From: Candidatus Thorarchaeota archaeon
GTDB taxonomy: Archaea > Asgardarchaeota > Thorarchaeia > Thorarchaeales > Thorarchaeaceae
Length of the DNA: 64,000 bases
Direction of reading: 5' to 3'
NCBI GenBank assembly: GCA_048884785.1
Contig: JBHLQM010000001.1
Location: forward strand, 93,743-157,742
Below the pieces are notes generated by a model. The model saw only the letters and a list, made by a program, of their open reading frames with translations, ran no database searches and was not told the origin of the DNA. Numbering within the stretch: position 1 is the stretch's first letter; the number at the start of each line of letters is the position of its first letter. Positions 19,671 to 36,958 of the stretch are shown here, piece by piece. The translations under genes and the position numbers were made by a program.

Positions 19671-21371
19671 TTAGGTGCTGTGCAAGTATGTTCGCTGAAT
19701 CTCAGTGACTACAAGGCCTGGAAGATCCTTCACCGAGTTCACAGGAATGACAACGCCTCCGGCCTTTACCAACCGAAGAGCAGCTTTTGATATTTTACCT
19801 CTTTTTGCACCGATATGAAAAATAAACAGCTTGTGACCTTGTTTAGAAAGCGAGTCGACGGTTTTGACAAAAGGACCCCAATTTGATACTCCGATGTCCG
19901 TTATGATTACGCTCATAACCTTGGATCTCGCCGTATCGCATAGCTCTTTGATAGCTTTTACGGGCATCACAGTTCCTCCCCCCTGATAGGCGAGTAGTGT
20001 ATCTTCAAGTAGATGCCTTTCTCGGGTCCATTCACATCTCAAGATACTCCCAGAGAAATTAATTGCAGCAACTTGACTGCTGCATCTGAGGGCTGTATCC
20101 ACAGAAGCGAGAGAAGCAACTAGAGCAGTATGATAAGGCCCACGCAGATTCTTCGAACCCATCTCCCAGGTCATAGAACCACTTGAATCTAGTACTACAA
20201 GGAGATCAGGAAGGTCTTCATCATGACTCACTCCATAGTGTGTGGCTCTCATCCAACGGCGAGTCGACATATTGGGAACCAGTACAGGAAAAGTCTGAAG
20301 CGATTGAACAACATCGAGTTCCTCGATCGGGTCTCCCAATCTCCATGCCTCAGTGGCAAGAGGCGTAGCTCCTTTGGAGCGCTTGTGCCGGACTCGAAAC
20401 CGAAGCAACCCTTGTACCTTCGCCCGATACCAGAAACGGATCCATTCCCCCTTCAGGGTTCCTCCATGTAGAATATAAACGGCTTCAAGATCCTTCAAAC
20501 TTCCTCCTCGATCCTCAACTTCAATTGCCAGACGTTCCATCACTTCATCGGGATTCTCCACTTGCTCGTTACTACCACATTTGCGTACTCGTTCCCCATT
20601 TCTATCTTCTACAGGACTTCCCATAATAACATCCAAGTCAACAGGAATCGTAATTGGCTGTTCTGAAGCATCTCCAGAATTAGGAATTGACACCCCAGAT
20701 CCTTCAAAGGGATCTTGATTTTTTGGCAGCCATTCTGTGATGACTTTTGCTATTTCTTCAGTAGCCTTTGGCCATTTATTCTCGGAGTCCATATTATTCC
20801 GAGCGATTTCTATTATCTTTTCAGCGACTGCAACAGTTGACTCGTCAATCTCAACCCCAAAGGGAACAGGAAACCCCCACATCACCCTATAGGCTGCCAC
20901 AACAAGTTGCCAGAGTGAGCTATGCTCTCTTGTTCTAAGGGATGAGTCATGAATAGATGTTTGGATTCTGGAGTGTGTTAGTGAGGGGTATCTCTTTAGA
21001 AGACTGGAATCTACCACCAAATCCGCAAAGATATTGCAGACAAACATTGCTACTGGGTCTGGAAGATGCTTTCTAGCTCCTGCAAACATCATACCATTTG
21101 TAACTCCATCAAAGGGACACACAAGGTAGTGCTGAATTTCATGGTGGCAGATGGATCGAAGATAAGGCTCAGCATCGTTTGAATCAAGGTTCAACGGGAC
21201 ACCGGCTGTATTCAGATGAACCGTCCAGTTATTCGAATCAATATAGAAGTAGGATGCGGCAGACTCATTGTATTCGATTGTTGGCTCAGGCAAAGGAGGA
21301 TGATAAAAGTCAGATAGAGCTCTAGCCCATGCGCGGCTGGCTGCAACTTCAAGGCTGTCACTTCTTGACAT
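19671..21371 (-). CDS. VWA-domain protein with an N-terminal zincin-like metallopeptidase domain
   Basis: HHEIQH (HExxH) and a MIDAS motif DSSGS..GGT..ITD. Confidence 0.8.
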   Translation of the reverse strand: MSRSDSLEVAASRAWARALSDFYHPPLPEPTIEYNESAASYFYIDSNNWTVHLNTAGVPLNLDSNDAEPYLRSICHHEIQHYLVCPFDGVTNGMMFAGARKHLPDPVAMFVCNIFADLVVDSSLLKRYPSLTHSRIQTSIHDSSLRTREHSSLWQLVVAAYRVMWGFPVPFGVEIDESTVAVAEKIIEIARNNMDSENKWPKATEEIAKVITEWLPKNQDPFEGSGVSIPNSGDASEQPITIPVDLDVIMGSPVEDRNGERVRKCGSNEQVENPDEVMERLAIEVEDRGGSLKDLEAVYILHGGTLKGEWIRFWYRAKVQGLLRFRVRHKRSKGATPLATEAWRLGDPIEELDVVQSLQTFPVLVPNMSTRRWMRATHYGVSHDEDLPDLLVVLDSSGSMTWEMGSKNLRGPYHTALVASLASVDTALRCSSQVAAINFSGSILRCEWTRERHLLEDTLLAYQGGGTVMPVKAIKELCDTARSKVMSVIITDIGVSNWGPFVKTVDSLSKQGHKLFIFHIGAKRGKISKAALRLVKAGGVVIPVNSVKDLPGLVVTEIQRTYLHST

Positions 21372-21388
21372 TTCTCACATATCCATTT

Positions 21389-23101
21389 TCATGTTTCAAT
21401 AGACTTTTCGATCTCTTTCCCCAGTTCAAGTGCCTCTTTGCCCCCTGAGATTTCTAGAAACACTGGGGATTCAGGTGAACTGCCAGTAACATAAACAACA
21501 AGAGTGACACCGTCAGTTCTGGCAACTTTTCTTTTTGGAGGTCTAAGAGTTTCTTTCAGAATGCCGGTCATTCGTGGAATCTTCAGACTGATAGTTGTCC
21601 AAAGTTCCTGCCATTTTTCGAATGTCAATGAGTATTGGGATAGTGTAAGACGATGCAAATCATCCATGATCTTCCCGAGCAGCATACTTCTATTTGGAAA
21701 ATCGGGAGAATCCAAGAGCTCCTTCTGAAGAGAGAGAAGGTCATTCACATTCTGCGACTCTGCTGCCTTATCGATACTCTTTACTATCTTGGCATATGCC
21801 GGGGTTTTTAGTTCCTTGGCTAGCTGGATATAGTCAAGGCGTACAAGCAGGTCGCTCTTGGCCATCTCACTCAACTCTTCTAATACAGTCTTATCCGAGT
21901 CTCCACTCTTTAGTTGGGCCATTAGCTTGATTGCTGGCTCTCTTTGAGTGAACCGAGTTGACGCAAGCTCAACAAGATGTTTTGTGAATTCAAAAGAATT
22001 CCCGAAGAAAGGAGATTTCTCAATGTACTCAGGTACATATCTAGTTCTGTGCCAAAAGACAAGTGGAGCAAGGGATTTCACAATCTCAATGCCAACCTCA
22101 TTTGAACCTACGAGCCAAGAAGCTGCCTTGCAATATCGATTCAAATCCTTCGCGGCTCGAACGCTTAATGGTATGATTACCTTATTGCACACACTTTTTG
22201 CAGTATTGAAATGACACCCATCGCAGAGACCTGATTCAACAGTCAATGTATGAGACTGACTCTTATCTGCCCGAATACAACCTCCGAACTCGCGAATAAG
22301 AGACCGCATGAATACAGATGCCTCAGGAGAAACTGAAATCTTGTCAGCTAGATTCCAAAGAGTGAGTAAGTCCTGTTCAGAAGTTATGGCCGGCACTTGC
22401 CACAATTCATCATACCCAAATAATCTCTCATCACGAGATGCAAGAATAATTTCAAGATCATCTATCGTTGGCATCGTGATTGGTACGGCAAGTCCAAACC
22501 TATCAAGAAATGGCGCTGCAAGGTCAAAGGTCCCACTGTCAGTGGGATTCATTGTTGCATATAGGCAATAATCGTCGCAGTGCTTAACTTCATCATAATA
22601 CTTTAGCTCTCCTTCTGCCAGCATCGATAGGAGTATGTTCTGTGCGTGTGGTGTGAGCCTGTTTACTTCATCTATAATCTTCCAGAAGTTAGTCACGAAA
22701 CGCCTCCATACCACAACTTCGACACCATCTTTCATTAGAGGACCAGGACGAAGCGTTGCTACCATTTTTTCTTCTGTTAGTTGCGGATGCCCACGCAGCA
22801 TTCCATCATCGATTTCATCCAAAGACTTCCCAGTTAGCATACGTCCAAGTAGTTTTATGAGCGTGGTCTTGCCACCGCCATGTCCGCCAACCAGAAGCAT
22901 CGCGGAGCGTGGCACAAGAGAATTCAGGACACATGCTCCCGCAATCAAAGGCAATCTGGTCGTACTAACACGGGAGCTACTGCGTGCCGCGGATTTGTAC
23001 CGGATAGGAAGCTCTTCGGAATGAACGAAAAGACCCCTGCTTTCAATAGTGGTAATGACGCTCCATATCCGTTCTCTGAGGACAGTACTTGACTCTGTCA
23101 T
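21389..23101 (-). CDS. MoxR-family AAA+ ATPase
   Basis: GGHGGGKT, IIDEVNR, ATMNP, FLDRF; lies upstream of the VWA gene. Confidence 0.85.
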   Translation of the reverse strand: MTESSTVLRERIWSVITTIESRGLFVHSEELPIRYKSAARSSSRVSTTRLPLIAGACVLNSLVPRSAMLLVGGHGGGKTTLIKLLGRMLTGKSLDEIDDGMLRGHPQLTEEKMVATLRPGPLMKDGVEVVVWRRFVTNFWKIIDEVNRLTPHAQNILLSMLAEGELKYYDEVKHCDDYCLYATMNPTDSGTFDLAAPFLDRFGLAVPITMPTIDDLEIILASRDERLFGYDELWQVPAITSEQDLLTLWNLADKISVSPEASVFMRSLIREFGGCIRADKSQSHTLTVESGLCDGCHFNTAKSVCNKVIIPLSVRAAKDLNRYCKAASWLVGSNEVGIEIVKSLAPLVFWHRTRYVPEYIEKSPFFGNSFEFTKHLVELASTRFTQREPAIKLMAQLKSGDSDKTVLEELSEMAKSDLLVRLDYIQLAKELKTPAYAKIVKSIDKAAESQNVNDLLSLQKELLDSPDFPNRSMLLGKIMDDLHRLTLSQYSLTFEKWQELWTTISLKIPRMTGILKETLRPPKRKVARTDGVTLVVYVTGSSPESPVFLEISGGKEALELGKEIEKSIET

Positions 23102-24347: not shown

Positions 24348-27300
24348 TTGAGGAAATTTGATACCTACATCGAGTCTGTGAGACTACGGAACTTTCTCTC
24401 CTTTTATGAAGGAGTGGTGGAGTTTGATCCAGGCCTTACAGTAATAGTGGGTCCAAATGGGTCAGGAAAGACATCCATATTTCATGCAATAAAGTTCGCA
24501 CTAGGTTCAAACCAAAGAGAGAATCGTTATTCTAAATGGAGTGATTTCATACGTCATGGTGCAAGCTCTGCTGAAGTTGAAGTTGTGGCTCGGGTAAATG
24601 GGCAAACGAGAAAATTTCAGAGAAGAATTACGAAGGATGGAATTCCTCGCGCATATATTGATGACAAAAGGGTCAAAGCAGCTGAACACCAGGGCCTTGT
24701 AAACAGCCTTGGTTTTGACATGGATAATCCCTTGGTCTTTATGCCTCAAGAGAGAATCAATGCCCTACGTGACATGGATCCCGTGGAGGTTAGGAAACTA
24801 GTTGAAGAAGGGACTGGATTAAGTGTACTCCGAGATAGGATTCAGCTCGAAGAAGTAAAAGTTCAATTTAGCCGTGAGAGATTGGAGTCTGCGACAAATG
24901 AGGCAAGAATTGTAGAACGAGAAATTGAACTTCTAAAAAGCGATATCGAACGGCTTGAGAGAAAGAGAGAACTTCTGAAAAAAGAGCAAACAATTGACAC
25001 AGAAGTCAAATGGGCTTCAATGGATGACTTGCATACAAAGATTGAGGCCACAAAGAAAGAAATCGAAGAGAAGGAACTAGGTCTTGGAGAAGTCTTGGAA
25101 GAAACCTCCAAAATTGAAACTGCAATATCTAAGGAAGAAAACAAGTCAACTATCCTGAATGAAGAAGCATCAGCAATTCAACGCGAATTGGGGTCAATTT
25201 CTGCGAGGATAGATGAGGAGGAACGACGACTCTCTAAGATAGAATCAGAAACCAAAAAGACCCTTGATGAGATTAAGGAATTGGAAAACCGAGTAAAAGC
25301 AGACAAACGTAAGATGGACAAGGCAAAGGAGGATTTGCGAAGAATCAGTGTGGCAAAAGAACACATGTTGGACAAGCAAAAGGAAGCAACCACAGAGCTA
25401 GATTCAATTGATGAAGAGCGAATCCGAATCGAGAATGAACTTGCGGCCTTTGCTGACTGGAATTCGAGAAGGTCCGAAGCACTAGCGACCTATAGAGCGC
25501 TTCAATCGGATTTGAAAGGAAAGGATCTACTTCTAAGAAGTCTTCAAGAAAAGCTTCAGAACGATGAAGCCGAGCTTCAGGCAATTGAGAGTAAATGGGG
25601 ACATATGTGGACTGCTCTTGAAGAAACTGATGAAAAGGAATTACTCAATAGAAAGTCACAATTGGAGAGAGAGATCGCCAATCTGAATGAAAACAGGTTC
25701 AAGTACGTGACCCAGGCTTCCCAATTGCAGAAAGAAATCGATGACATAAAAATACGAATTGCAGAAAGCTCCAAAAGAATGCCAGATGTTGTTCTGAGTC
25801 TCTCTGAAGCCGTGAAGGAGCATGGATTAGGGAGTATTACCGGACCGCTTGTAAGTATACTGACATCAAAGGATGAATATGCATCAGCTCTTGAGGCAAT
25901 AATCCCGGGAGATATGGCTTTTGCCTTCCTTGTTGAAGACGAAGCAGAGTTCACACTTCTCTGCAAACTCAGAGATCAACTTGAGGCCCCATCGCCGGTT
26001 ATCCTCTTGAAGGACCTTGATGATGTTAATGTTGCCGCAGAGCTACCATCGTGGAAGGGTATTATTGGTTTCTTGTGGGACCTTTTGGGTTTGGATCCTC
26101 AATATGTCAAAAAAATGAGAGCAGCTTTTGGAGAGTATGTTGTAACAAGCGAGGGAAAAACAGCAACAAGAACTGCGGAAAAGGCTCAATTGAATGCTGT
26201 TTCACTGGAAGGCCAGCATGTGGAACCATCTTCAAAGAGAATCATTAGCCATCCTAAGAGAGGACCTAGTGGAGTTATTACGACTGCACCTTTGCAGACA
26301 AGATTAGGTATTGCAGAGTCGGAACTGCAAATCTCCAGAAATCAAGTTACAGATGTTATGTCAAAGATTGACAAGGCCTCTCAAGAAAGAGACACGATAA
26401 TGGATCTTCTAAGTCAGGTAACAAGATGGAGTGGGACATGGGAGCGACGCAAGAAACTGCGTGAGATCATTCCGGACCAAGAAGAAAGAATTGTATCCAT
26501 AGACGACGAGATAAAGGATATTCAGCAAAAGGTTGGAAAAGCGGAGAGAGAGCTTAAACGGCTGGACACTACTCAACCTCCTGAGAGAAGTCGCCTTATT
26601 GGACAGCAGTCTGCTATCAGAATGAAATATCGAAGTGTGAGGACCAATCTCTCCCAGATTGAAGCTAATCTGCAGACTACAGAACGCGATGAAGCCACAA
26701 AACGACAAGAATTGAAGGGACTTAATGAGAGTGTTACAATGCTCTCCGAAAGAGTTGAGGAATTGCGAAATGAGATTTCTTCTTCAAAGACAGAAGGGAG
26801 TAATATAGTTGAAACAATAGAGACCCTTAGGATAGGGTTTGAAGAAACACAAATGAAGTACAATGAACTGAAAGCCCAATACACAGAAGTGAGAGGGACT
26901 ATCAGAGAACTCAGCGAGCATCTGCTTGAACTTAATTTGCAAGTGAAGAGTAGCAGAATTCAAGTATTACAATCCAAAAGACATCTGGATGCATTTCAAA
27001 ATGAGCTGGATGCTATTAAGACAGCACTGAAGAACAAGAAGCGACCGGATGTGGTAAGACCGGTCGAAATTGTAAGAGACGACCTATTGCGCGTGAGGCA
27101 TCAATTAGAGGAGTACAGGGATGTTTCTGAAACTGTTGCACATACTGAGAGTCAACTGAAGACTCAGCTGTCAGAACTTACTAGCAAAATACAAGGAATC
27201 AAAGAGGAACTTGATGAAGCAGAAGAAACTGTGAAAGATATTAGAAAACAGTACCATGAGGGGATGAACGAGGTTCTTAGCAAAATTGAGGGAGAGATAA

Positions 27301-27719
27301 ACAATATTCTGGGCACCGTACGTTTTGTGGGTGAGATTCGATTCAGTCTTAATACTAGTAACCAAGTATATGGAGTGGAATTTAAAACAAGAATAAAGGG
27401 GGAGGACTTTGGAGAACTGCGAGCAGGTTCAGGAGGTGAACGCTCGCTCATCGCGATAGGACTAATATTGGCTCTTCAAAGGTTTAATCCTGCGCCAGTC
27501 TATGCAATGGATGAGATAGATACCTTTCTAGATGCAACAAATACGGAAATGGTCAGTAGATTGCTCTATGATTCTTCTCGAAGAAGTCAGTTCATTCTAT
27601 TTACACCTGCCAAGAGTACTCATCTCTTGCGTCACGCTGACAAGCGACTAGGAGTTGTTTCTCCAAGCGGCAAGGAACCCTCAGTCGTGATTGAGAGCCC
27701 GCAGTTCGCGAATCAATGA
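24348..27719 (+). CDS. smc: SMC-family ATPase, Smc5/6-like
   Basis: GPNGSGKT, FMPQ, two long coiled coils around a hinge, GSGGERS, AMDEID, QFILFTP. Confidence 0.92.
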   Translation: MRKFDTYIESVRLRNFLSFYEGVVEFDPGLTVIVGPNGSGKTSIFHAIKFALGSNQRENRYSKWSDFIRHGASSAEVEVVARVNGQTRKFQRRITKDGIPRAYIDDKRVKAAEHQGLVNSLGFDMDNPLVFMPQERINALRDMDPVEVRKLVEEGTGLSVLRDRIQLEEVKVQFSRERLESATNEARIVEREIELLKSDIERLERKRELLKKEQTIDTEVKWASMDDLHTKIEATKKEIEEKELGLGEVLEETSKIETAISKEENKSTILNEEASAIQRELGSISARIDEEERRLSKIESETKKTLDEIKELENRVKADKRKMDKAKEDLRRISVAKEHMLDKQKEATTELDSIDEERIRIENELAAFADWNSRRSEALATYRALQSDLKGKDLLLRSLQEKLQNDEAELQAIESKWGHMWTALEETDEKELLNRKSQLEREIANLNENRFKYVTQASQLQKEIDDIKIRIAESSKRMPDVVLSLSEAVKEHGLGSITGPLVSILTSKDEYASALEAIIPGDMAFAFLVEDEAEFTLLCKLRDQLEAPSPVILLKDLDDVNVAAELPSWKGIIGFLWDLLGLDPQYVKKMRAAFGEYVVTSEGKTATRTAEKAQLNAVSLEGQHVEPSSKRIISHPKRGPSGVITTAPLQTRLGIAESELQISRNQVTDVMSKIDKASQERDTIMDLLSQVTRWSGTWERRKKLREIIPDQEERIVSIDDEIKDIQQKVGKAERELKRLDTTQPPERSRLIGQQSAIRMKYRSVRTNLSQIEANLQTTERDEATKRQELKGLNESVTMLSERVEELRNEISSSKTEGSNIVETIETLRIGFEETQMKYNELKAQYTEVRGTIRELSEHLLELNLQVKSSRIQVLQSKRHLDAFQNELDAIKTALKNKKRPDVVRPVEIVRDDLLRVRHQLEEYRDVSETVAHTESQLKTQLSELTSKIQGIKEELDEAEETVKDIRKQYHEGMNEVLSKIEGEINNILGTVRFVGEIRFSLNTSNQVYGVEFKTRIKGEDFGELRAGSGGERSLIAIGLILALQRFNPAPVYAMDEIDTFLDATNTEMVSRLLYDSSRRSQFILFTPAKSTHLLRHADKRLGVVSPSGKEPSVVIESPQFANQ

Positions 27720-27728
27720 GGGAGAGTC

Positions 27729-28367
27729 ATGGCTGCATCAAAGAAGCTTCTGTCACAGGTCCAAAAGATTGTTGACGCGCTGGATGAAGGGAAACTGGAT
27801 CCTCTGGATATTCATCTTCTCGAAGCGTATAGAGAGCTAAGAGATATTGCGGCAGAAGTTGGTCCTAAGTTGGATATCGATGAGATGCTCAATGAGATTC
27901 TTGGAGCGAAAATCACCAAGATTCAGGAGCTAGCAAAAGTCCTCGCGGCTCCGGAACTCTATGTGAACAAGCTCAAAGAAATCAAACCGAGGGAACTCGG
28001 CAAATTAATAGTCTATAAACAGCCCATGATTTTGAATAGTCTGAAACATGAGGAACTAACAAGTGCCTTTGAAAGAATTGCCCAGCATATTGATGCGCTT
28101 ACTCGAGAGGCAATAGAAGATCCAGTTCCTGTAATTACAGGTGTTCCTGATGATTATCGATTTGCGACGCAGGATTCGGTATTTCTTGCTGACCTGGAGA
28201 AGTTCTCAAAACAAATACCCAAGAACAAAAGGGTGTTGATACAGAAACTTATTGATTCTGAGGACTTTGATGAATTCCTGATGAAGTTTCTCTATGTCGT
28301 GGTGCTCATTTCACGAGGGGAGCTGGAGTATTTTCCTGAAACAAGAGAAGTATTGAAGACGAGATGA
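27729..28367 (+). CDS. Kleisin (ScpA/Nse4-like)
   Basis: LDPLDIHL resembles ScpA IDPWDIDI; C-terminal wHTH-like FL..V.LI.RG.L; 9 nt after smc. Confidence 0.7.
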   Translation: MAASKKLLSQVQKIVDALDEGKLDPLDIHLLEAYRELRDIAAEVGPKLDIDEMLNEILGAKITKIQELAKVLAAPELYVNKLKEIKPRELGKLIVYKQPMILNSLKHEELTSAFERIAQHIDALTREAIEDPVPVITGVPDDYRFATQDSVFLADLEKFSKQIPKNKRVLIQKLIDSEDFDEFLMKFLYVVVLISRGELEYFPETREVLKTR

Positions 28368-28424: not shown

Positions 28425-29786
28425 CTAGTTCTCAATCAGGGACGGCTCTGAAACTGCGACTTCTTGGCTTCTAGCAACAATTTGATTGTTCGAAGTCGTA
28501 GCGTTCAGCATGAAAATCAAACATTGATTAAGTTGTGCTTCTCGGAGATAGAGTAATGCTAGTAGAGACACGACTAGAAAAGCAAATCCAGCAGCAAAGA
28601 GGGGTATCACTGTTGATCCTACCGCCTCTGCCCAAACCCCGCCAAGTGCCATTCCTATTATTTGGAATGACGTGAATACAACACTCAACAGCGAAAAGAC
28701 TCTACCTCTCATCTTGTCTTCAACCAGTTTTTGCATGAGTGTACTAAGTGGTATGTTAAGCATTACATCAACCGATGCAATAAGCATCCAGGATAAAACA
28801 ACTGTAACAAATCCATCTGCAAGGGAGAAACCAAGAACAGAGGCACCTGCCACAGCCCCAGCAAAAGCGATCAATGCTAATGGATTCCTAAGTTCAGACT
28901 TCTTGCCAAGAATTAGAGCAGTTACAATACCTATTCCTGCACCAAAGCTCATCATAAGCCCTATTTCGAGTTCGCTTAGACTTAGCCAACCTTGAGCATG
29001 TGGAATAATTAGAGCATTTAGGACTCCAGAAGATACAGCCAAAAGAATTGCGAAAACAAAAACAAAGCTTAGCACAGCGTTGCCTGCAACCAAACGCCCA
29101 CCTGCAGCAATTTGCTGTTTCATGGACTCTCCTTCTTGATGCGAAGACTTAGGGGTCAAATCCGCAGAGATTCCTTTCAGGGCAATGGCGGAAATTACAA
29201 AGGTCATTGCATTAATTGCGAAGGCGAGGAAATAGTCAGGTGCTAAAAGGGCAATTAGGATGCCACCTACAGGTGGTATAGTGAGTTGCACCACTTGATA
29301 GGTCATTTGAGATAGAGAATTTGCTGTCACAAGTTCCTCGCCTTCGACTAGATTGGGCAATGATGCATTTCTTGCAGGATAGAACCAAGCATCAGCGGAA
29401 GCATAGAGGAATGTCAGAATGTAGACCCAATATATGATGGGAATATCACCAGGGAAATAGATGGAAAGCGGAATGAGTAGTATGAGAATTGTCCGTGTGA
29501 CATCAGAGGCCACCATTATCGTCCTTCGATTCCATCTATCAACATAAACTCCGATGAATCCGGAAAGTAAAACCACTGGGGCTACTCTAATCATTGCAAG
29601 AATGGCCATTGCCAGTGCTGATTGGGTTAGATAATAAACAAAGAATAGTAACGCAAGCGAGCTAATGGCCGTACCAATGTTTGATACAAGTTGGCCGATC
29701 CAGAGCCGGAGATAGTCAGTGCGATGAAGGATTGTTGAGAAACCGGGCTTTGTAGACCCACTTTCATCAACAGAAGTAAGAGTCAG
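28425..29786 (-). CDS. MFS efflux transporter (DHA3/Mef-like), probable CTG start
   Basis: Encoded on the minus strand although the track labels it +. The frame extends 59 codons upstream of ATG 29609 and includes YLRLWIGQLVSNIG (TM1). Motifs GVYVDRWNRR and MRGRVFS; GGAGGT lies 7 nt before CTG 29786. Confidence 0.85.
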   Translation of the reverse strand: MTLTSVDESGSTKPGFSTILHRTDYLRLWIGQLVSNIGTAISSLALLFFVYYLTQSALAMAILAMIRVAPVVLLSGFIGVYVDRWNRRTIMVASDVTRTILILLIPLSIYFPGDIPIIYWVYILTFLYASADAWFYPARNASLPNLVEGEELVTANSLSQMTYQVVQLTIPPVGGILIALLAPDYFLAFAINAMTFVISAIALKGISADLTPKSSHQEGESMKQQIAAGGRLVAGNAVLSFVFVFAILLAVSSGVLNALIIPHAQGWLSLSELEIGLMMSFGAGIGIVTALILGKKSELRNPLALIAFAGAVAGASVLGFSLADGFVTVVLSWMLIASVDVMLNIPLSTLMQKLVEDKMRGRVFSLLSVVFTSFQIIGMALGGVWAEAVGSTVIPLFAAGFAFLVVSLLALLYLREAQLNQCLIFMLNATTSNNQIVARSQEVAVSEPSLIEN

Positions 29787-29791
29787 AGAGT

Positions 29792-29881
29792 TTACCTCCT
29801 AAGATATGCATATGCGATTGCATCGGTTGATATCTTAGGTCTGATGGTATTCCGTGAATGGGTGTTCTTGGAAAGAGCCAT
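29792..29881 (-). CDS. Small peptide 2, MALSKNTHSRNTIRPKISTDAIAYAYLRR (29 aa)
   Basis: ATG with a GAGGT SD embedded in the previous ORF's end; paralogous to peptide 1; its own end supplies the MFS SD. Confidence 0.65.
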   Translation of the reverse strand: MALSKNTHSRNTIRPKISTDAIAYAYLRR

Positions 29882-29887
29882 TTCCAA

Positions 29888-29989
29888 TTACCTCACAACA
29901 GTTGCGTAGGCGTAGCCTACAGCCTTGGTCGAAGCGACCTGTCTGTTCTTCTTCACGAGTTCAGTTCGGGTATTAGTTGCTAGAGCCAT
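29888..29989 (-). CDS. Small peptide 1, MALATNTRTELVKKNRQVASTKAVGYAYATVVR (33 aa)
   Basis: ATG about 32 nt downstream of a TATA box; paralogous to peptide 2. Confidence 0.65.
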   Translation of the reverse strand: MALATNTRTELVKKNRQVASTKAVGYAYATVVR

Positions 29990-29996
29990 GATATTT

Positions 29997-30066
29997 CACA
30001 AGTCTATGGTACCAGATTTGGTATATATACCGAAGCCACAAGTTGGGGTCACAGAAAAGAGTCACA
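29997..30066 (-). promoter_or_regulatory. Promoter of the peptide-peptide-MFS unit
   Basis: Palindromic GGTATATATACC (30020-30031) flanked by CACAAGT direct repeats (29997, 30037), with GTCACA at 30048 and 30061. Confidence 0.5.
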
Positions 30067-30439
30067 AAATGTTACTACAAGATGAGTTAATATGATGAAA
30101 AAACTAGGCCAGAAAATCATGTCTGAAGCTGAGTTCATAGGACAGCTAGTAGGTTATTTCAAAGCTTTAACCAATTCTCACTTGATTAAATCTTATGGCG
30201 TTTGGAAAGCCGGCAATTACGCAAATCAATTCGATTGATAGGTACCTATTCTCAAGTCGTTCGATATATGTGGAGGAGCCCATTTGTGTGACTTTGATTC
30301 TTTTGCTTTTTCATTAAAGATGCTCTTGAAGGTTGTTTTGAGCCTAGATGGAGCACTTGCTGCCAAAGGATTTAGTTAACCTGAAATAGAAGCGAATATC
30401 ACTTCTACCTCCACTACTAGATTCTGAGAGGCTTGAAAA

Positions 30440-36019: not shown

Positions 36020-36544
36020 GTGAAACTGATGAATGAATACTCAGTTCTCATGAAACTGCTCACTCGTAGTGGCGACCCAATAGGTGCTGGAGTAGATGAC
36101 ATGCTGGATGCCTTGGGATTGCCTGAGAATACAGGACGTCATATTCTCTTCCAGAGACTTGGAGAACTTCATAGTCGCATATCTCCTATTGGACTCATCA
36201 TAAGGCATAATCCTGTCAGTCACGTATTTTACATTGATACAGACATAAGGACGGATATATTACAGGAACATTCCCCTCTCCCAGACAGACTGTCAGCAAC
36301 TCTTCTGATTGTGGTTACCCTTGCCTATCAAGAGGGTGGGTGGGTCTCTGTTGATCGGATTCGAGAGTTCAGGAGAAAGGCTAGGCAGGGCGTAATGACT
36401 GACCTTCGGGAGTTGGCTGATATGCGCTACATTGAGCTTGACACCAAAGCAGGGAAGGCGCGCCCAGGAACGAGAGTCGCTTTTGAAATCGACTACGAAG
36501 CCTTCTTCCAGAATCTCACGAAAGCAAAGCCAAATGAAAATTGA
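36020..36544 (+). CDS. Tandem winged-helix kite-family protein (ScpB/Nse1/JetB-like)
   Basis: Two wHTH-sized halves; L..L..RISPIGL.I, ATLLIVVTLAY, L.EL..MRYI, PGTR..E. Confidence 0.55.
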   Translation: MKLMNEYSVLMKLLTRSGDPIGAGVDDMLDALGLPENTGRHILFQRLGELHSRISPIGLIIRHNPVSHVFYIDTDIRTDILQEHSPLPDRLSATLLIVVTLAYQEGGWVSVDRIREFRRKARQGVMTDLRELADMRYIELDTKAGKARPGTRVAFEIDYEAFFQNLTKAKPNEN

Positions 36545-36586
36545 AGTCGCTTCGTTAGTTTTATCAAGGTTCTTTCTTGGGTTCAC

Positions 36587-36958
36587 ATGGTTGAAAACAT
36601 GTCACACCGACGCTCACTCAGATACGCAAAGACATCCTGTCCAGTCTGTGGGAGCAATGAGGTTGCCCGTGACGACAACAAGGGAGACATGCTATGTACC
36701 AACTGCGGACATATCATAATCCGAGAAGATACCCGGGCTGTTGGTAAGTTCGAGATTGCCCAAGCTCTCAGAAGCGAGGGCAAGATGAAGTTTGAACAGC
36801 TCAAGAGTGCCACTGGTGCATCTGATGCACAACTCTACAATGTAGTAGAGAGCATGGTAAGCATGGGACTTCTGCAAGACATCATGGGGACATATTCCCT
36901 CACCAAGCGTGGTCAACGCTGGTATAGACAAAGACTCGGACAGGAATGGGGCTATTAA
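36587..36958 (+). CDS. TFIIB-type zinc ribbon plus winged-helix protein
   Basis: CPVCGS..GDMLCTNCG followed by a wHTH ending YSLTKRG. Confidence 0.75.
   Translation: MVENMSHRRSLRYAKTSCPVCGSNEVARDDNKGDMLCTNCGHIIIREDTRAVGKFEIAQALRSEGKMKFEQLKSATGASDAQLYNVVESMVSMGLLQDIMGTYSLTKRGQRWYRQRLGQEWGY

Follow-up and report, generated by a model that had tools for sequence, protein, structure and literature searches.

What do two very short open reading frames in front of a membrane transporter gene represent in a Thorarchaeota genome: chance ORFs, leader peptides, or members of a protein family of their own? To answer this question, a window of 64,000 nucleotides from Candidatus Thorarchaeota archaeon (Asgard archaea) was analyzed together with the rest of its genome, the other genomes of its family, and further genomes of the phylum. 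An earlier note had described two tandem paralogous micro-peptides heading an MFS exporter operon and had read them as an undescribed archaeal peptide export or signalling system, possibly a RiPP, or as a double leader-peptide attenuator. The features of the locus, given as window positions, are as follows.

30092..30238 (+): 48-codon remnant of a divergent PF14196-family gene
30061..30075 (-): operator palindrome GT[AC]ACA-N3-TGTGAC, defined from sequence, 86 nt before the P1 start codon
30034..30053 (-): two further half-sites in 13-bp register (TGTGACC, then GTGGCT) running up to the BRE position
30021..30029 (-): TATA box
29990..30001 (-): conserved leader with GTGA (SD-like) before the P1 ATG
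29888..29989 (-): microprotein P1, 33 aa, basic, with a C-terminal STxA[ILV]xYAY motif; its last codons form the SD of P2
29792..29881 (-): microprotein P2, 29 aa, paralogue of P1; its last codons form the SD of the MFS gene
28425..29786 (-): MFS transporter, 453 aa, CTG start, DHA3-like

The observation made in the note was confirmed. Both ORFs were present with the translations given there, and the shared MAL..NT, the ST.A[VI].YAY core, the synonymous differences (CTA/CTT, AAT/AAC, and TAC GCC TAC/TAT GCA TAT), and both AGG TAA ends were found in the sequence. The stop-to-start gaps are 6 nt (P1 to P2) and 5 nt (P2 to MFS). The MFS frame is open for 59 codons upstream of the first ATG (29609) and most likely starts at CTG 29786, where orthologues have ATG, TTG, or GTG; an ATG/GTG/TTG-only gene caller truncates the protein by 59 residues. 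The protein exceeded the curated Pfam cut-offs of MFS_1 and MFS_3 (97.6 versus 33.4 and 80 versus 27 bits). It was most similar to the models of DHA3 MFS exporters (Mef(A), EntS; TIGR00900, E 1e-58), but scored below every NCBIfam cut-off.

The two ORFs are not due to chance. The family pattern matched 12 of 30,102 small ORFs in the genome and none in three composition-preserving nulls. Over 117 P1 and 119 P2 cores, pN/pS was 0.445 and 0.415, respectively, with no stop codons, against 1.2-1.5 with many stops in the shifted forward frames. The invariant Ala uses all four codons, and Ser uses both TCN and AGY. The sequences were collected by profile and pattern, so that conservation at the anchor columns is inflated and the invariant columns were partly chosen by the pattern itself. 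P1 and P2 are paralogues (HHalign, 97.5%). The terminal Arg, which the note had listed among the shared features, is largely explained by the overlapping SD (AGG in 121 of about 127 P1-type ORFs followed by another detected peptide) and is not independent evidence of peptide selection.

The peptides belong to a multi-copy, lineage-specific family, which the note had missed. The genome contains eight such cassettes. A P2 profile matched 76 of 85 other genomes of the family, usually several times (3-13 matches per genome in most genomes), and only five of 314 other genomes of the phylum, at marginal E-values (0.01-0.04). Named records carrying the same promoter were almost all Thorarchaeota or Asgard/archaeal MAGs. 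From 197 loci, 147 distinct cassettes were extracted, a few of them probably false. They fall into about six or seven syntenic locus types shared across genera, so they are old paralogues; this, together with the absence of the operator pattern from the viral contigs searched, makes cargo of a mobile element or virus unlikely. Promoter plus P1 was 95-96% identical between some loci whose P2 was about 60% and flanks about 40% identical, which points to module shuffling or conversion. Cassettes lacking the main operator, with an extra 36-aa ORF ahead of the two paralogues, were found in the same genome (locus L037:5617-6071 in C20; L numbers denote loci, and C numbers refer to the genome containing the window) and in L045 and L023. 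In L070, L078, L123, L128, L132, and others, a conserved spacer of about 150 nt with repeated GGTCAC half-sites lies between peptide genes, often spanned by an ORF of about 42 codons; it gave no Rfam hit.

What follows the peptides varies. In 66 of 147 cassettes (about 45%), the last gene is P3, an acidic peptide of 30-40 aa ending in an EVLALEAT-like motif, not homologous to P2 and found in 66/86 genomes; 14 cassettes have no coupled ORF. The P3 3' motif is partly an RNA hairpin, a covarying 11-bp stem before a T-tract (90% paired, 3 pairs with two-sided change). In the locus type of the window, the third gene is the MFS, which was found in 45/86 genomes. All 36 orthologues with enough upstream sequence, from five genera, carried the peptides directly upstream, whereas only 2 of 8 more distant paralogues had one. 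Absence of the ORFs from orthologous MFS loci, or stops within them, had been named beforehand as grounds for rejection, and neither was observed. A second MFS family, unrelated by BLAST (E 0.028) and present in 72/86 genomes, had peptides within 1.3 kb upstream in 22 of its 30 best hits, although these were ranked by likeness to a cassette-linked copy and the fraction is biased upward. A conserved GC-rich hairpin without an Rfam hit precedes this second family.

Most cassettes share one promoter, another feature missed by the note. In 123 promoters, the palindrome 86 nt before the ATG (core GT[AC]AC-N5-GTGAC) was followed by two more half-sites in 13-bp register and then by TATA, whose positions were 98-100% conserved. 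A 26-bp pattern occurred in 83/86 family genomes, with reversed controls near zero. A PWM scan of the genome gave a clean set of five cassettes, a bactofilin gene, an S9 peptidase, and a 359-aa membrane protein with scores of 33-44, then a drop to 23, followed by an oxidoreductase-like gene and an MFS paralogue. The site before bactofilin recurred in many genera. The bactofilin (420 aa; L038:3415-5286, C59) is preceded family-wide by an HTH_45 winged-helix gene, which is a candidate regulator. The multi-TM membrane protein (C3:85922-87001; L202, L204, L210, L212, L214, L217), with an acidic then Arg-rich N-terminus, is preceded by the operator in several genera, and in one genome (L336) a P1 peptide sits in front of a homologue. 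The S9 peptidase (L039:4420-6501, C45) has first six residues (MAHESN) matching the start of one P1 subtype, suggesting that it captured a promoter-leader module. It is present in only 11/86 genomes, and 7 of 9 examined lacked the operator; an obligatory processing role was therefore rejected.

The operator shares the TCAC-N5-GTGA core with TATCAC-N5-GTGATA, the TGM site of TrmBL1/Tgr in Thermococcales, where a site upstream of BRE/TATA activates (PMC4706686). However, the flanks differ (AG..CT rather than TA..TA), there are extra 13-bp direct repeats, and the targets are microprotein, bactofilin, and MFS genes rather than sugar metabolism. Nine TrmB-domain hits above the cut-off were found in the genome, none tied to the site, and the regulator was not identified. 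A minority of cassettes use a second motif, GGTTT-N7-AAACC abutting TATA, next to an ArsR-like winged-helix regulator; this is the only adjacent regulator and occurs at one locus type. A predicted complex of this regulator with its neighbouring P1 gave no verdict and carries no weight here.

Taken together, the analysis itself establishes that the peptides are coding and selected, that they occur in several copies per genome, that most copies share a promoter with the operator just upstream of BRE/TATA, that the same operator precedes bactofilin, a multi-TM membrane protein, and a second MFS family, and that each ORF end supplies the SD of the next gene 4-7 nt from its start. The remainder is inference from sequence. 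In this view, one transcription activator would switch the regulon on in some physiological or morphological state, activation being inferred from site position only, and ribosomes would then read P1, P2, and the third gene (P3 or an MFS) in a coupled chain. The gaps are longer than the -1/-4 overlaps typical of reinitiation, though under the ~20 nt that abolishes coupling (PMC10666635), so that coupling is likewise inferred. This regulon framework is considered highly likely. The interpretation offered in the note was thus only partly supported: the unit TATA-pep1-pep2-MFS is conserved, but the MFS is not the defining partner, the RiPP and hairpin-attenuator proposals are weak, and export or signalling remains no more than possible.

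The preferred reading of the mechanism, held only tentatively, is that of a co-regulated, dosage-amplified microprotein family acting inside the cell. The peptides would be products and not just leaders: basic (about +5 to +6), with a variable linker and a conserved, probably helical C-terminal motif that would bind a conserved intracellular partner stoichiometrically, which would explain the many copies; the MFS would be a co-induced member of the response rather than a dedicated peptide exporter. This is favoured by the family-wide rather than strain-specific conservation of the motif, the high copy number, the strongly basic and hydrophilic composition, the 66 of 147 cassettes ending in P3 instead of a transporter, and the portable promoter-P1 module that also lands before other regulon genes, which offers a neutral route to the MFS link. 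AlphaFold predicted one helix, with the C-terminal part most confident (pLDDT about 75; overall 65). A similar dosage logic is seen in the Bacillus alpha/beta SASP family, in which small proteins come from several dispersed paralogous genes under one developmental promoter type; those proteins are twice as long, the present genes are polycistronic, and no sequence match was found in Pfam or NCBIfam. No binding partner was identified, and the link to two unrelated MFS families speaks for export instead.

The main alternative, possible but less likely, is an exported signal: P1/P2, or their processed C-terminal ~10 residues, would leave through the coupled MFS and coordinate a population-level switch including the bactofilin, in the logic of the SHP/Rgg, ComS/ComR, and Phr/Rap systems of Firmicutes, whose short peptides also have a basic N-terminal part, a conserved aromatic C-terminal part, and linked transporter genes. 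Besides the double MFS link, paralogues of the second MFS family without peptides can still carry the operator, and peptidases appear in the regulon sporadically (S9 in two genomes, and S41 in one genome, the S41 gene, L200:2414-3883 (-), being inserted directly behind an operator-driven P2-type peptide between duplicated cassettes). Archaeal peptides can alter cell shape and motility in Haloferax (PMC12144867), although those are lanthipeptides. On the other hand, no Rgg_C domain, the only RRNPP model searched, was found in this genome (91% complete), the MFS of the window was not found in 41/86 genomes, and pheromones are usually single-copy, paired with a receptor, and strain-variable, whereas this motif is family-conserved and multi-copy, with tandem paralogues behind an archaeal promoter. 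In its most far-reaching form, which is unlikely but not excluded, one activator would induce many copies of unmodified microproteins, two MFS exporter families, a bactofilin cytoskeleton, and a membrane partner, with the exported peptides acting as cell-cell signals for a shape or developmental transition; to our knowledge, no such circuit is described in Asgard archaea.

Tandem leader or arrest peptides of the SpeFL or TnaC type, stalling the ribosome in response to a metabolite and so controlling the third gene, or an RNA-hairpin attenuator, are doubtful, although nascent-peptide arrest remains possible given length and register. The length (32-37 aa) and the aromatic residues near the C-terminus in a fairly tight register to the stop (invariant Ala 9-11 residues from the end) resemble the 34-aa SpeFL, whose aromatic C-terminal effector blocks release and which regulates an operon with a transporter (bioRxiv 10.1101/604074). 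However, the HIRRxxH sensor motif is absent, there are two or three tandem paralogues, and the register varies by 2 residues. A gene that could be regulated, the MFS, follows the peptides in the locus type of the window, but in about 45% of cassettes the only downstream output is a 30-40 aa peptide and a terminator-like hairpin, and some have no output. Junction MFE was slightly lower than in recoded controls (64-70% of cases), while SD pairing barely exceeded that of synonymous recodings (0.66 versus 0.64 and 0.61 versus 0.58). No terminator stem with a clear T-tract was found between the peptides and the MFS in a bacterial-style scan.

A leaderless multi-peptide antimicrobial resembling aureocin A70 or garvicin KS, with the MFS as exporter or immunity and acidic P3 as neutraliser, is unlikely: the tandem paralogous cationic ORFs of 26-37 aa without a leader next to transporters fit, but the peptides are hydrophilic (GRAVY -0.5 to -0.65), almost Trp-free, and vertically inherited at syntenic chromosomal loci rather than patchy. 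RiPP precursors cross-linked at YxY by a maturase encoded elsewhere are very unlikely, since, despite an aromatic-x-aromatic motif in 97/111 P1 and 32 radical-SAM hits in the genome, YxY occurred in only 32/107 P2-type peptides, no recurring radical-SAM (CxxxCxxC) or P450 motif lay within 4.5 kb of 143 cassettes, and no maturase was found among the operator-controlled genes.

No known family was recovered: there was no Pfam hit for P1, no NCBIfam hit for P1-P3, no PDB hit for any profile at E<=10, no usable ESM Atlas hit, and no Rfam hit. A search of 1.84 billion proteins returned family members plus unrelated long repeat proteins and two fused or chimeric calls. Of seven peptides looked up, five were absent from a 15-billion-protein collection, and none carried a functional name. 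Resemblances to PIP-box, HbYX, and histone-tail motifs were dismissed because register or conservation did not fit. Literature searches, in an incomplete library, found no description of these peptides. RiPP, RRNPP, and bacteriocin membership each failed on a defining feature, as did the attenuator reading at family level; the family is therefore regarded as new in kind, a judgement resting on the absence of a match while any function remains inferred. These data expose a conserved layer of genes that annotation mostly misses in a lineage close to the origin of eukaryotes, and define a transcription-factor regulon, as inferred from the shared operator, linking microproteins, two transporter families, and a bactofilin. 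Bactofilin-family proteins govern cell shape in haloarchaea (PMC11459167). The operator, the peptides, and the coupled MFS are small enough to be studied in a model archaeon without a Thorarchaeota culture.

The surroundings of the cassette in the window showed further features. The remnant at 30092-30238 (+) is 77% identical to the start of an intact 218-aa PF14196 (ATC_hydrolase-like) gene at the same place in a same-genus genome, and four or five other genes now lie between the cassette and its usual upstream neighbours at 36020-36958. An SMC-like gene (24348-28367, +) and a probable kleisin (ScpA-like) partner (36020-36544, +) converge on the MFS, and this pair flanks the cassette-MFS locus in many genomes. 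A MoxR-type AAA ATPase followed by a probable VWA-domain protein is located at 19671-23101 (-).
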